Of a stretch of DNA of 64,000 nt, positions 25 through 63,973 are shown one piece after another. The translations under genes and the position numbers were made by a program. The notes under the pieces were generated by a model. The model worked only from the letters and a program-made list of their open reading frames with translations, did no database searches and was not told the origin of the DNA. This DNA comes from a virus (Duplodnaviria > Caudoviricetes), in IMG/VR virus record IMGVR_UViG_3300034166_000463, positions 6,642 through 70,641 of that record, one strand, 5' to 3'. Each line of letters opens with the position of its first letter. Positions within the stretch are counted from its first letter, which is position 1.

Positions 25-140
25 CGAACGATTAAATCCTCCTGCAGCCCGTGAACGCCACTCCGCCACTCCCTGAGCCTCCTAGCCACGCCACCGCTGA
101 ACTGCGGGGCGGTGGGCATAGGTCTAGCGACTTGTTCGCC
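25..140 (-). mobile_element. attC-like site A (degenerate/composite)
   Basis: Left end CGAAC-GATTAA (25-35); right arm GGGCATAGGTCTAGC-GACTT-GTTCGCC ends at 140. The arms pair poorly, but GTTCGCCA is the exact reverse complement of TGGCGAAC (283-290) at the far end of this cassette. Confidence 0.6.
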
Positions 141-296
141 ATTGTCGCCAAATGGAGGAAAGATGCCGAGATGCACCGCAACTCATGCCGACTTCAAGAG
201 CAGGCAGGCAGGCGAGACAAAGCCGACAGGCACTATCAACGAAGCCTAGACCTCGACGCCTGTGCAAAGTGCATTGAGGATTTGGCGAACGCCTAG
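51..296 (+). CDS. cassette-borne hypothetical protein
   Basis: 81-aa ORF that starts inside attC-like site A. Its stop TAG is supplied by the next site (AAC GCC TAG). Confidence 0.6.
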   Translation: MNATPPLPEPPSHATAELRGGGHRSSDLFAIVAKWRKDAEMHRNSCRLQEQAGRRDKADRHYQRSLDLDACAKCIEDLANA

Positions 297-415
297 CTCT
301 GGCACCCTCACCACTAACTACGAAAAAACTATGCAAACCGAAAACGATACATCGAAGCCCGAAGACTCACCCCGACAAGAGACTGGTGAGGGTTGCTCAG
401 GAGCGACTTGTTCGC
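285..415 (-). mobile_element. attC-like site B
   Basis: GCGAAC-GCCTA-GCTCTGGCACCCTCACCA pairs with TGGTGAGGG-T-TGC-T-CA-G-GAGC-GACTT-GTTCGC, giving R box, unpaired spacer, L box and extrahelical G/T. The reverse complement reads like a canonical attC (AAC AAGTC GCTCC...GAGC TAGGC GTT). Confidence 0.85.
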
Positions 416-675
416 GTCTCTTCCGAGTGCAAGTGACCTTCGACACGGTGATCTACGCCGAAGACGAAAAGGCCGCAAAGCAAAAGGTGAAATACGGCAC
501 GGGCGAAATCGACGACATGCCCATATCGGTGCTGGCGATGCCGATAGAATCCCGCGACGGGCTACCCGCAGGATGGAACGCGGGATGCCTGCCGTGGGGT
601 GATGCTCCCGAAAACACGACCATCGGGGAAATTCTTAACGCGAACTTATTGTTCGGTTTTTCATATCCCTCTTAA
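331..675 (+). CDS. cassette-borne hypothetical protein
   Basis: ATG 331 lies in the loop of site B after an A-rich leader. The ORF reads through the cassette end (ACGCGAAC 638-645) into flanking DNA. Confidence 0.7.
   Translation: MQTENDTSKPEDSPRQETGEGCSGATCSRLFRVQVTFDTVIYAEDEKAAKQKVKYGTGEIDDMPISVLAMPIESRDGLPAGWNAGCLPWGDAPENTTIGEILNANLLFGFSYPS
643..656 (-). other. attI-like/secondary recombination target at array boundary
   Basis: AAC-TTATT-GTTCGG: inverted AAC/GTT triplets separated by a 5-bp AT-rich spacer, exactly where cassette B ends. Confidence 0.6.
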
Positions 676-5581: not shown

Positions 5582-5710
5582 ATGAGGCCACCAACCAACT
5601 GGGCAGCCATCAAAGCTTGGTGCATCGAAAACAACGCCTCAATATGGGACATCCTAGACTGGCGACCTGTTGATGGGGTGTATCGCTTAGCCACTAAACA
5701 AAAGCCATGA
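5582..5710 (+). CDS. small hypothetical protein (42 aa)
   Basis: MRPPTNWAAIKAW...; its TGA overlaps ATG 5707 (ATGA coupling). Confidence 0.5.
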   Translation: MRPPTNWAAIKAWCIENNASIWDILDWRPVDGVYRLATKQKP

Positions 5711-5715
5711 AAACC

Positions 5716-5832
5716 AACGCCTAGCTCTGGCACCGCGCCGGAAGCGCGTGCCGCAACTCACAAATCTATGAACCAAAATCAAGACTCCGACAACACAGCA
5801 AGCGCGGTTGCTCCAGCAGCGCCTTGTTCATC
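5716..5832 (-). mobile_element. attC-like site C
   Basis: AAC-GCCTA-GCTCTGGCACCGCGC...GCGCGG-T-TGCTCCAGCAGC-GCCTT-GTTCATC; left half nearly identical to site E. Confidence 0.85.
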
Positions 5833-6046
5833 CATTACGGTCCGATTCGTCGACGACACCCAAACTGGCAGATGCTGGTTCGAGGAAAAGCTCACAAATG
5901 GCCAGTGGGCGATGATCCCAGAAACCAAGATGACCTGCGAAGGCAACTCTCGGCACTCCCTCGCGGAAGTGATCGAGCGTCGTCGCCAGCAACGCCTGAT
6001 GATATTCCGCAACGTCGGCAAGGAGGAGGTCATTCCCATTCGATGA
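5768..6046 (+). CDS. cassette-borne hypothetical protein
   Basis: ATG in the loop of site C; GC-rich; ends at GATGAAC, the complement of GTTCATC. Confidence 0.75.
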   Translation: MNQNQDSDNTASAVAPAAPCSSITVRFVDDTQTGRCWFEEKLTNGQWAMIPETKMTCEGNSRHSLAEVIERRRQQRLMIFRNVGKEEVIPIR

Positions 6047-6169
6047 ACGATCAAATCCAGCCATGAGCCTTCCCAAAATCTGCACGTGCCCCACGGTCCC
6101 ATCTGCGGACTGCCCGTTCCACCACCAAGAAGCTCGTGGCTCATTGGCTGCGATGCCGGGTTCAGCTTC
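6046..6169 (-). mobile_element. attC-like site D
   Basis: AAC-GATCAA-ATC-CAGCCA-TGAGCC pairs with GGCTCA-T-TGGCTG-C-GAT-GCCGG-GTT, a clean stem with two extrahelical bases. Confidence 0.9.
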
Positions 6170-6587
6170 GGTTGACGCCATTTTGTCCAGCGACAGTGGC
6201 GACAGTTCGCTGATCCACAACCTCGCAACTCGTGCCCGCGAAATGGAGGCGCTTGCCACCACGCTGATGCGGACATGCTACGACGAAGCGAACAGGCTCG
6301 CGAACCACGGCAGCAGCGGACTTGAAAACAGGGTTATGTCTCAACTCTACGACGCCGCCAACGACGCGAAGAAGAAGCTGAACTTTATGTTCGACGTAGC
6401 TTTCACGGTCGAAGGACCTTGGGAGCTTCCTGAGGATGTCCCAGCAATCCAATTAATTGCTGGACTTCAAAAAAGAATTACAGATTTGACATTAGCCCAT
6501 GCAAATAAGTCAGAAGACATTACCGAAGCGTTTGGGTATTGCGATTCTTATAAAGTCGATGAACCCCCAGAAGTAAAATTCTTTTAG
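6063..6587 (+). CDS. chimeric ORF: cassette D protein fused in frame to the interrupted resident gene
   Basis: GC-rich part ends at GAAGCTGAAC (6374-6383). The remainder (FMFDVAFTVEG...) continues the orphan start ATG AAA ACC AAC at 5707. Confidence 0.75.
   Translation: MSLPKICTCPTVPSADCPFHHQEARGSLAAMPGSASVDAILSSDSGDSSLIHNLATRAREMEALATTLMRTCYDEANRLANHGSSGLENRVMSQLYDAANDAKKKLNFMFDVAFTVEGPWELPEDVPAIQLIAGLQKRITDLTLAHANKSEDITEAFGYCDSYKVDEPPEVKFF
6381..6394 (-). other. attI-like/secondary recombination target at array boundary
   Basis: AAC-TTTAT-GTTCGA, the same architecture as 643-656. Confidence 0.65.
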
Positions 6588-62619: not shown

Positions 62620-63126
62620 ATGAACGACACACCGACACCTGAGACGGATGCTCTTTACAGAGATGACCACCGCCCAAATCTTATTGAACACGCCCGTAAA
62701 CTCGAACGCGAGCGGGACGAGGCGCGGGAGTATGCAGACAAATTAGCCGAAGGGCTACCAGACGGGATGCTCCCGAAGGATGTCGAGGTGCTGCGGGAGG
62801 CGAATCTTGGGCTGGCTACCGAACTCGCCACCGTCACCGCACAGCGAGACGAAGCGCGGGAAACAATCGCCACGATGGAAATTCGTCATGCCGCTGTAAT
62901 GCTACACACTCAAAGCATTGTTGACGAAGCCAATCAATTTCGAGAGCAGCGCGACAGGCTGGCGGAGGCTCTGCGATACTGCCGCGAGGACTCAGCCGAA
63001 CTACTCGGCGAGCGCGATTGGTGGCAATCCGAGCCGAGGTGTGATTATGCTAAGAGATGGCAAGAAACCCACGATAACCTGACCCGCGCCGACGAAGCCC
63101 TCCAATCCCTAACCCTGAACGCCTAG
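62620..63126 (+). CDS. TPETD/KLERE family protein 3
   Basis: Same motifs; stop supplied by attC-like site E (AAC GCC TAG). Confidence 0.7.
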   Translation: MNDTPTPETDALYRDDHRPNLIEHARKLERERDEAREYADKLAEGLPDGMLPKDVEVLREANLGLATELATVTAQRDEARETIATMEIRHAAVMLHTQSIVDEANQFREQRDRLAEALRYCREDSAELLGERDWWQSEPRCDYAKRWQETHDNLTRADEALQSLTLNA

Positions 63127-63232
63127 CTCTGGCACCGCGCCGAGAGCGCGTGCCGCAACTCACAAATCTATGAAACCAAAATCAGACTTAAACAACACGG
63201 CGGGCGCGGTTGCTCAGGAGAGACTTGTTCGG
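63118..63232 (-). mobile_element. attC-like site E
   Basis: AAC-GCCTA-GCTCTGGCACCGCGCC...GGCGCGG-T-TGC-T-CA-G-GAGA-GACTT-GTTCGG. Confidence 0.85.
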
Positions 63233-63433
63233 GGTGTTTGGAATAACCTAGCGGCTTCGCTAATATGCACGCCCTTGCTCGGCGGAATCACCGTGTTTAC
63301 ATGCGGACTAGGCGGTCATGCCGACTTGGTTTCGTGGTGCGCTGCTGCACTCGGACTGTCCGTTGGATGGATGGCGGGTCTGTGTGGTGCGCTCGTGGTA
63401 ATTTCTTCACCGAACATCACTATCACAAAATGA
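63170..63433 (+). CDS. cassette-borne two-TM membrane protein
   Basis: ATG in the loop of site E; two hydrophobic helices; cassette ends at CCGAAC 63410-63415. Confidence 0.65.
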   Translation: MKPKSDLNNTAGAVAQERLVRGVWNNLAASLICTPLLGGITVFTCGLGGHADLVSWCAAALGLSVGWMAGLCGALVVISSPNITITK

Positions 63434-63500
63434 CAACGAAGAAAAAGACTCCCGCAAAGAAGAAAGCCCCGCCGGTTGCCGCTGCCGCGCCTTGTTCGGC
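63413..63500 (-). mobile_element. attC-like site F (left arm decayed)
   Basis: Right arm GGTTGCCGCTGCCGC-GCCTT-GTTCGGC is intact; GTTCGGC complements GCCGAAC 63552-63558. Confidence 0.6.
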
Positions 63501-63585
63501 GTCTGAGCTTGCTGACCGAATCGCCAACGAAATCGGACAAGGATTCCGTCTGCCGAACGCCTCTGTGGAGGCACGCCAAAAATAA
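63430..63585 (+). CDS. short, probably truncated cassette ORF
   Basis: MTTKKKTPAKKKAPPVAAAAPCSAS...PNASVEARQK. Confidence 0.45.
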   Translation: MTTKKKTPAKKKAPPVAAAAPCSASELADRIANEIGQGFRLPNASVEARQK

Positions 63586-63640
63586 ATCTATGAATACACC
63601 AACCAACTCCGAGGCGTTGCCTCTCACGAATTGTTCTCCG
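63556..63640 (-). mobile_element. attC-like site G
   Basis: AAC-GCCTCT-GTG-GAGGCA-CGCC pairs with GGCG-T-TGCCTC-T-CAC-GAATT-GTT; GTTCTCCG complements CGGAGAAC 63783-63790. Confidence 0.85.
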
Positions 63641-63973
63641 TCTTTTTTGTGCCGCGTGATCGGCCATCACTGGACATGTAAAAAGGTGGATGAGCAAACA
63701 TCCCCCGGATACCGGATTACGACCAAGGAAATGATCTCTCACTGCCGCCGATGTGGGATGCCGAATCCGATCTATTTTCATTCGGAGAACAGCGGCATGG
63801 GTGACGGATACTGCCCGATCTTCGATAAATTCACCGATCCTGACCACGGCAAACGCTGCACTGCATTTCAGCCGAACGTCAAAGGCCATGCGTCGCCGGA
63901 ACACGCGCCCAAAATTGATCAGACGGCTTCCTCGGCGTCGCATGTGCCGACTTGTTATCCATCTTCCGATTAG
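63590..63973 (+). CDS. cassette-borne DUF1660-like Zn-binding protein, reading through into the following remnants
   Basis: LCRVIGHHW...CRRCG; ATG in the loop of site G. Confidence 0.6.
   Translation: MNTPTNSEALPLTNCSPSFLCRVIGHHWTCKKVDEQTSPGYRITTKEMISHCRRCGMPNPIYFHSENSGMGDGYCPIFDKFTDPDHGKRCTAFQPNVKGHASPEHAPKIDQTASSASHVPTCYPSSD
63875..63960 (-). mobile_element. attC-like site I
   Basis: AAC-GTCAAA-GGC-CATGCG-TCGCCG pairs with CGGCG-T-CGCATG-T-GCC-GACTT-GTT. Confidence 0.85.

Follow-up and report, generated by a model that had tools for sequence, protein, structure and literature searches.

A phage genome record with probable integron cassette arrays in a reversed, frame-locked layout and no integrase

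What are the long hairpins that recur between small genes in a phage genome record, each opening with AAC and closing with GTT, and what put the genes between them in place? We addressed this question in the window, a stretch of 64,000 nucleotides that corresponds to bases 6642-70641 of the 70,641-bp IMG/VR virus record IMGVR_UViG_3300034166_000463 (window coordinates are prefixed w; coordinates of the whole record are marked 'genome'; other loci used for comparison carry L numbers). Comparison with related sequences makes it very probable that this phage carries three arrays of genuine integron cassettes without an integrase, of the type known as clusters of attC sites lacking an integron integrase (CALINs), and that these cassettes have a reversed, frame-locked layout.

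The most direct view of how the cassettes arrived comes from close relatives in which they are missing. Loci L055 and L056 are collinear with w3590-5579 and again from w6381 on, and they have neither of the two units that we call cassettes C and D. In their place is an uninterrupted gene start whose fourth codon, AAC, continues directly into the codons found from w6384 onward in the window. In the window, cassettes C and D (w5718-6382) follow exactly on the AA of this resident gene's fourth codon; the resident gene and the inserted cassette share only the AAC, and the resident gene keeps an in-frame ATG two codons past the cassette D joint. Both forms of this region were assembled from a single lake run (X6), in which a contig bridging the cassettes (depth 15.3) has no differences from the window and a second contig (depth 24.7) skips w5716-6380, joining w5715 to w6381 with three ambiguous letters. 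A third target in this record is found close to the stop of another gene (genome 6142-6390), at an AAC that is read in frame: L155 and L156 have nothing inserted there, and in L157 the AAC holds a different array of sites recognized by our covariance model, R1 (described below).

Individual cassettes were also found in unrelated surroundings. Cassette D is 99-100% identical in L137, L138 and L139 and 90% identical in L140, with homology confined to w6045-6383; L137-L139 have no other DNA-level match to the window, and the homology stops at both AACs. Counting the window itself, cassette D has eight different right-hand contexts. Comparison of cassette B with L024 gave the same picture, homology stopping at both AACs and the flanks differing. 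Across the collected sites, nine pairs share the hairpin and the downstream 150 nt while their upstream 150 nt differ, and one pair shows the reverse, an artefact in which a duplicate is cut by the end of its locus. The alignments put the crossover at the 5' AAC of each hairpin, the junctions being located within the shared AAC plus 0-2 neighbouring letters and the phosphodiester bond itself lying beyond the resolution of sequence. Breakpoints at AAC and not elsewhere, together with empty sites in L055 and L056, are what a preliminary description of this DNA had anticipated, and the comparative support is unusually clean.

The ends of the cassettes point in the same direction. The bases that follow the GTT of a hairpin are complementary to those that precede the AAC at the far end of the same unit, as they should be in units that were once circles joined at the R box. 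In the window the seven complementary end pairs reported in the preliminary description are all exact, with runs beyond GTT/AAC of 5, 5, 4, 7, 3, 4 and 5 nt. When these ends were re-paired, none of 1,854 derangements came up to the observed mean of 4.71 (mean 1.43, maximum 2.29), and the runs measured against the AAC of the same hairpin are 2, 3, 0, 2, 1, 3 and 1. Complementary runs in 63 pairs of adjacent sites average 3.71 nt, with a mode of 5 nt (26 of 63), compared with a permuted mean of 1.07 (observed value reached in 0 of 10,000 permutations) and a same-hairpin run of 1.11. For this set we removed duplicates, locus L003 and any site lacking an exact AAC or GTT where the model expects it; two non-adjacent window 'pairs' were kept, which is conservative.

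All eight hairpins previously noted in the window (E1 to E8) were found in the sequence, distributed over three arrays of two to four sites each, and the sequence just before the window contains another complete site (genome 6380-6510; R1 37 bits). The features are as follows, in window coordinates.
27..141, + strand: E1, attC-like site, partly decayed; AAC 27-29, GTT 134-136; R1 10.3 bits, E 0.11 (w46-144)
288..417, + strand: E2, attC site; AAC 288-290, GTT 410-412; R1 133 bits (w280-420)
290..644, + strand: cassette B, C290 to A644; 91% identical to L024 382-741
643..653, + strand: right end of array 1, AAC-TTATT-GTT; R1 collapses onto it with 9.8 bits, E 0.16
5707..5718, + strand: first four codons of the resident phage gene, ATG AAA ACC AAC, severed from the rest by the insertion
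5716..5833, + strand: E3, attC site; AAC 5716-5718, GTT 5826-5828; ATG 5768 inside; R1 94 bits (w5708-5836)
5718..6047, + strand: cassette C; GTTCATC complementary to GATGAAC
6046..6169, + strand: E4, attC site of a second subclass; AAC 6046-6048, GTT 6160-6162; arms aligned by hand
6048..6382, + strand: cassette D; open reading frame (ORF) 6063-6587 (174 aa) without a stop of its own, running in frame into the resident gene
6381..6391, + strand: right junction of array 2, AAC-TTTAT-GTT; same as the relatives' empty site, with the in-frame resident ATG inside
63118..63234, + strand: E5, attC site; AAC 63118-63120, GTT 63227-63229; R1 102 bits (w63110-63237)
63413..63500, + strand: E6, attC-like site, decayed; AAC 63413-63415, GTT 63494-63496; R1 11.5 bits, E 0.055 (w63455-63504)
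63556..63640, + strand: E7, attC site; AAC 63556-63558, GTT 63633-63635; R1 33.7 bits (w63548-63643)
63875..63956, + strand: E8, attC-like site; AAC 63875-63877, GTT 63954-63956; R1 26.5 bits, E 4e-6 (w63867-63964)

Run with its filters off, R1 recovered five of these eight sites at E <= 4e-6, and the two weak scores belong to E1 and E6, the first and sixth hairpins, which had been described as partly decayed. E1 opens cassette A, which runs from C29 to A289; its hairpin is 96% identical to L026 1294-1388, and its GTTCGCCA (134-141) is complementary to TGGCGAAC (283-290). E2 holds the ATG at 331 in its loop; its 3' arm bulges are G, T and T, its L box matches at 11 of 11 pairs, and the R box, the spacer and the L box all appear in its minimum-free-energy fold. 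The ORF that starts there in cassette B (331-675, 114 aa) is supplied with its last 10 codons and stop from beyond the cassette, and the short AAC...GTT element at which array 1 ends is either a remnant of the resident target or a minimal site.

In array 2, cassette C has a 92-aa ORF (5768-6046) whose stop, TGA, shares bases with the following AAC. That AAC opens E4, which has two bulges on its 3' arm, an ATG (6063) in its 5' arm and a fold that gives the L-box stem; we accepted E4 as a site, though R1 misses it, because exact cassette boundaries are seen at it in other phages. Directly 5' of the split resident start lies a GC-rich ORF of 41 codons (w5582-5706, +) that is missing from L055 and L056; the cassette-less X6 contig also skips w5580-5687, and no hairpin stands beside this ORF. 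In array 3, E5 shows G, T and T bulges with 10 of 11 L-box pairs, and its cassette encodes an 87-aa product (ORF 63170-63433) that looks hydrophobic. The E6 cassette has a 51-aa ORF (63430-63585) and ends in which GTTCGGC is complementary to GCCGAAC. E7 forms the full hairpin in its fold (z-score -2.51) and pairs GTTCTCCG with CGGAGAAC; its cassette ends at A63789 and its ORF (63590-63973, 127 aa) continues beyond that end. E8, which also forms a hairpin in the fold, has a loop without an ATG and sits within the reading frame coming from E7.

These sites belong to a wider family. A 19-base stretch of the 5' arm is present at 23 IMG/VR loci and in six genome_contigs records, all six of which are metagenome-assembled genomes (MAGs) labelled as Verrucomicrobiota lineages. 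R1, a covariance model built from 20 distinct family members, gave 105 matches in 298 kb (window plus loci), mostly in co-oriented arrays with a spacing of 230-900 bp. In the alignment of the 20 sequences AAC and GTT are invariant, and the consensus fold comprises an R box (AACG/TGTT), an unpaired spacer of 4-5 nt, an L box with bulges confined to the 3' arm, an inner stem and a variable loop. Double compensatory changes occur in 5 of 20 stem pairs, completing the attC architecture that had been claimed for these hairpins. The 3' arm is read in two different frames among copies, so that its conservation is that of a nucleic acid and not of a peptide. Some relatives have GTTAGCC or GTTAGGC as their R' sequence; here the box is GTT plus about five variable nucleotides.

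The bulges also bear on which strand recombines. Nivina et al. 2016 (PMC5027507) place the exchange between A and C of the bottom-strand AAC and the extra-helical bases opposite this triplet on the bottom strand; in the VCR2 site of Vibrio cholerae these bases are G16, T20 and T24. Our consensus 3' arm has G, T and T with three paired bases between each, which would place the bulges at 16, 20 and 24 if counted from the outer end of a 7-nt R'', a numbering convention that we infer. This G-3bp-T-3bp-T geometry was seen on the + strand at 32 of 99 distinct sites and on the other strand at none of the 99. With the bulges on the arm opposite the crossover AAC, the + (coding) strand is the bottom strand and the unit reads attC then gene, the arrangement put forward in the preliminary description and in agreement with the nine informative pairs and the 5' AAC junctions. 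Insertion has the normal polarity; what is reversed is the gene inside the cassette.

This orientation is accompanied by a consistent gene grammar. The AAC is in frame at 67 of the 76 sites that follow an open frame of at least 30 codons, in a viral set of 80 distinct sites, and the stop of the preceding gene mostly lies 6-60 nt past the AAC, often as the TAG of the spacer GCCTAG. At 65 of the 80 an ORF of 40 aa or more begins with an ATG inside the site, as expected from the earlier statement that the start codon lies inside the hairpin; the same two measures at MAG loci gave 20/27 and 20/29. Textbook cassettes consist of promoterless genes upstream of their attC, read from a promoter beside the integrase. 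No cassette with that layout (gene on the top strand, 5' of its attC) was found in the window. Both layouts nonetheless use R1-type sites, given that in L048, L050, L051 and L053, all Verrucomicrobiota MAGs, the longest ORFs are on the opposite strand.

For cassette D, substitutions against six homologues number 14, 13 and 69 at codon positions 1, 2 and 3 over w6263-6380, a segment that has no long antisense frame, and stops occur in all three antisense frames of the cassette; the + frame of D is its coding frame. Searches of Pfam, PHROG and the ESM Atlas returned no function for the cassette proteins, the matches being sub-threshold noise resembling tetratricopeptide repeats or coiled coils and one PHROG of unknown function at E 0.0085.

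We then asked which enzyme might act on the sites. The record has at least two attC sites and no integron integrase, which is the definition of a CALIN, and a complete integron, with intI and attI beside an array, was not found in its 70,641 bp; relatives L021, L046, L047 and L049 have both intI and attI. An IntI protein scored above the curated cut-off of TIGR02249 in four of five MAGs examined, versus none of 14 control genomes. At MAG loci, intI or intI-like genes follow directly downstream of R1 sites and share their orientation, and a recurring AT-rich, attI-like end stands between the last cassette and intI, consisting of GAAC followed by AG, a T-rich stretch and TTA. We saw this end at L046, L049, L047, L041, L042 and L043, and it also closes the arrays of L021 and L026 in IMG/VR, the L021 array ending in an attI-like AAC AGTTAATTA and then a 321-aa IntI-like protein (194 bits; cut-off 265). 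One cassette occurs twice, with differing upstream flanks, in the array beside the IntI-like gene of L047 (5783-7247 of the oriented locus), the product of a duplication through cassette insertion.

The adjoining intI is sense on the + strand of the sites. Class 1 and Vibrio integrons have an intI that diverges in transcription from the cassettes, and by that standard the + strand of the site is once more the bottom strand. The phage might use a host integrase; some MAG contigs with reversed cassettes may themselves be phage or prophage. A comparison of the phage transfer-messenger RNA (tmRNA) with five Verrucomicrobiota MAGs gave a 56-nt core match in two of the five only, too weak for host assignment.

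Several observations weigh against the interpretation of the arrays as integron cassettes in a phage of Verrucomicrobiota. R1 misses E4 at w6046 and barely sees E1 and E6, and its members were chosen by an exact 19-mer, which biases its hits towards one subclass. When the + strand sites were folded as single-stranded DNA, as had been proposed, the whole hairpin formed in two of eight, while the energies were unremarkable (z-scores from +1.15 to -2.51), a weak result. An Rfam scan found only the tmRNA and two tRNAs and no family matching the sites. The rigid bulge model does not describe 67 of the 99 sites, which have other spacings, and the published consensus of R' GTTRRRY and R'' RYYYAAC does not describe the window, where all seven sites read GTTC. 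The 70,641-bp record gave no PF00589 hit and no tblastn hit with MAG IntI that would indicate a tyrosine recombinase. In X6, presence and absence of the cassettes were read from contigs and not from reads, and the cassette-free form differs by six letters in the 70 nt beside the joint, which marks it as a related strain and not as proof of excision in place. The host is probably a member of the Verrucomicrobiota, an assignment taken from the site family alone, and IntI recombination at the cassette sites is itself deduced from comparing sequences.

Of the alternatives, the one that fares best concerns the enzyme and leaves the cassettes as they are: the mover could be the IntI of co-infecting phages of the community, or of an intI-bearing ancestor, in place of a host integron. 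We regard this as possible, short of probable. The record containing L137 (G009; 39,440 bp, direct terminal repeats, rated complete) holds cassette D of the window at 100% identity and encodes an IntI at 354 bits, above the cut-off of 265, so a phage, and not only a host, could supply the enzyme. An array with an attI-like end and an IntI-like gene is likewise present on the IMG/VR contigs of L021 and L026, and the canonical orientation of the arrays in L048, L050, L051 and L053 hints that reversed cassettes may be a phage pool. Against this stand the four of five MAGs that combine the site family with an IntI above cut-off and have reversed cassettes adjoining it.

Could the hairpins instead be regulatory repeats, acting as promoters, terminators or translation-control RNAs, that are shuffled by homologous recombination? 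Such a process has been proposed for the promoter early stem-loop (PeSL) motifs of T4-type phages (PMC2839356, PMC4122927), repeated stem-loops that flank small accessory genes in plastic regions and accompany modular shuffling. The hairpins of the window do recur between small genes and hold a start codon and the neighbour's stop, the phage encodes an Erf-like annealing protein, eight pairs share the hairpin while both flanks differ, and a role in the mRNA could coexist with recombination. PeSLs are promoter or terminator motifs thought to act through homology. The sites described here differ from them in their attC geometry, complementary variable ends, single-triplet junctions and link to IntI, and homology exchange of the PeSL kind does not match the mapped junctions, which have AAC alone in common with the resident site and with eight unrelated contexts. 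Homology-driven exchange would leave unexplained the variable 5-nt complementarity of cassette ends, an insertion into a resident gene with nothing but AAC in common, identical cassettes that stop exactly at AAC in those eight contexts, one-arm bulges, and sites that adjoin integron integrases. We consider this explanation improbable.

A textbook orientation, with the + strand as top strand, the crossover at G/TT on the 3' side and each gene followed by its attC, is scarcely credible. Being symmetric, the complementarity of cassette ends would suit either polarity, but each cassette would then have to carry the head of the next gene, and the hairpin travels with the downstream gene in all nine informative pairs and with the upstream gene in none. 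We tested this polarity by junction mapping and rejected it, every mapped junction falling at the 5' AAC; it is also opposed by the 3'-arm bulges and by the strand on which the adjoining intI is sense. Equally hard to sustain is an assembly artefact in which bacterial integron DNA was misjoined to a phage contig, since, even with both record ends lying in GC-rich array sequence of a kind that breaks assemblies, contigs from independent runs cross the junctions with zero differences (X3 records 4-6 and X6 record 9), cassette D is embedded in several other phage contigs, and the flanks are collinear with L055 and L056.

The genome around the arrays is that of a phage from fresh water. The window codes for a primase/helicase, tail-fibre proteins, an Erf-like annealing protein, a tmRNA and two tRNAs, and the stretch w4300-7900 was found in contigs of public runs labelled as lake-water or freshwater metagenome. 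Genes either side of the cassette insertion at w5707-6394 are carried on the + strand. A blastn comparison with named phages matched the Erf-like gene only and gave no named relative; two loci examined of 80 from an Erf-based search, L057 and L058, are distant relatives without an R1 site. The Erf-like single-strand annealing protein is encoded at w1081-1671 (+), 430 bp downstream of array 1; the substrate of Erf-like proteins is single-stranded DNA, which is also what attC sites fold from, and any link to the arrays is speculation. The tmRNA lies at w58196-58552 (+; Rfam 120 bits), with a tag peptide that ends in ALVA according to ARAGORN, and w14971-30267 (-) is a single ORF whose product of 5,098 aa is presumably a giant protein, either part of the virion or injected.

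The arrays form GC islands (0.51-0.62, against 0.457 for the genome). A GC-rich stretch (0.50-0.62) occupies both ends of the record, w61750-64000 and genome 1-300; the right-hand half of a site takes up genome bases 1-48, and joining the record ends gives an ORF that runs across them. The record is probably permuted, or broken inside array 3. No sites or further cassettes were found in the GC-rich w61750-63117, and a strict scan of the GC islands for GTT plus five and five plus AAC returned only four pairs that were already known, a search that adds little at an estimated 1-2 chance hits.

How do these arrays relate to known systems? Integrons and 17 CALINs have been reported in phages, some of them virulent, and five of six tested phage attC sites recombined with attI1 under IntI1, according to the portions of Qi et al. 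2023 (Front Microbiol, PMC9892861) considered here. The arrays in the window resemble those phage CALINs in combining attC arrays and small genes in a phage without intI. In the same portions the cassettes are oriented as in bacterial arrays or have divergent sites, whereas here they are reversed, frame-locked and start inside attC, and the empty-site comparison that we give has no counterpart in that text. In the papers searched, and for Qi et al. 2023 in the text considered here, we found no bottom-strand genes that start in attC with a frame-keeping crossover. The preliminary description had called this a candidate new system, which is too strong, as phage attC clusters without an integrase are published; the reversed layout itself appears undescribed.

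At the level of the single site, the likeness to VCR2-type sites is close in what PMC5027507 describes of them: a long imperfect hairpin (about 100-140 nt) with R box, spacer, L box and long variable loop, and three extra-helical bases, G, T and T, four positions apart and opposite the recombining AAC. Sedentary chromosomal integrons, in the descriptions available to us, share with these arrays the similarity of sites within a family and the crossover in AAC. Unlike them, the window has a bottom-strand gene that follows its attC and starts inside it, an R' of GTTC plus four nucleotides in place of GTTRRRY, and arrays that lie in a phage and split resident genes. IntI is also described, in the parts of bioRxiv 10.1101/2022.09.11.507474 relevant here, as inserting cassettes at genome sites called attG with a GWT consensus. 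The phage targets similarly read G/TT on the complementary strand and lie outside attI or attC; they differ from attG, as far as it is set out there, in resembling small palindromes (AAC-N5-GTT) at gene ends, one of which is reused in relatives.

The arrangement and a possible mechanism can be outlined. A cassette starts with the C of its own AAC, stops with the AA of the following one, and consists of an attC followed by one small gene on the same strand. The crossover AAC lies on the 5' arm and the extra-helical bases on the opposite arm, and this strand is the recombinogenic bottom strand. The ATG of the gene sits inside the attC, and the AAC usually serves as an in-frame Asn codon of the preceding gene, whose stop in most cases comes 6-60 nt into the next attC, or else in resident phage sequence. 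An IntI supplied by the host or by a co-infecting phage may fold the bottom strand and exchange it at AA/C, pairing attC with attC or attC with a genome site of the attG kind. Such a layout would allow cassettes to be swapped within a translated phage operon with the reading frames intact.

We lean, with some reserve, towards a broader reading in which freshwater Verrucomicrobiota phages keep an integron dialect of their own, where attC doubles as a translated gene joint, combining the preceding stop, the following start and a crossover triplet read as Asn, and so provides a frame-safe plug-in to an accessory pool shared by otherwise unrelated phages. In that dialect IntI could insert any cassette at any position of an operon, or in the first or last codons of a resident gene. 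The cassette genes, which fall in no known family, might on speculation be candidates for host-takeover or anti-defence functions.

Integrons are known from bacteria as devices for capturing genes. Here integron chemistry appears to serve a virus with its gene grammar reversed, the site being part of the coding sequence and the crossover keeping the frame. ORF-embedded recombination sites have so far been pursued with synthetic attC (PMC7439510). The sites and empty targets described here form a tractable experimental set. If IntI does act on these sites, they would be a natural case of recombination sites embedded in ORFs, identical small genes could spread among unrelated phages, and integron integrases would be among the forces that shape phage accessory genomes.

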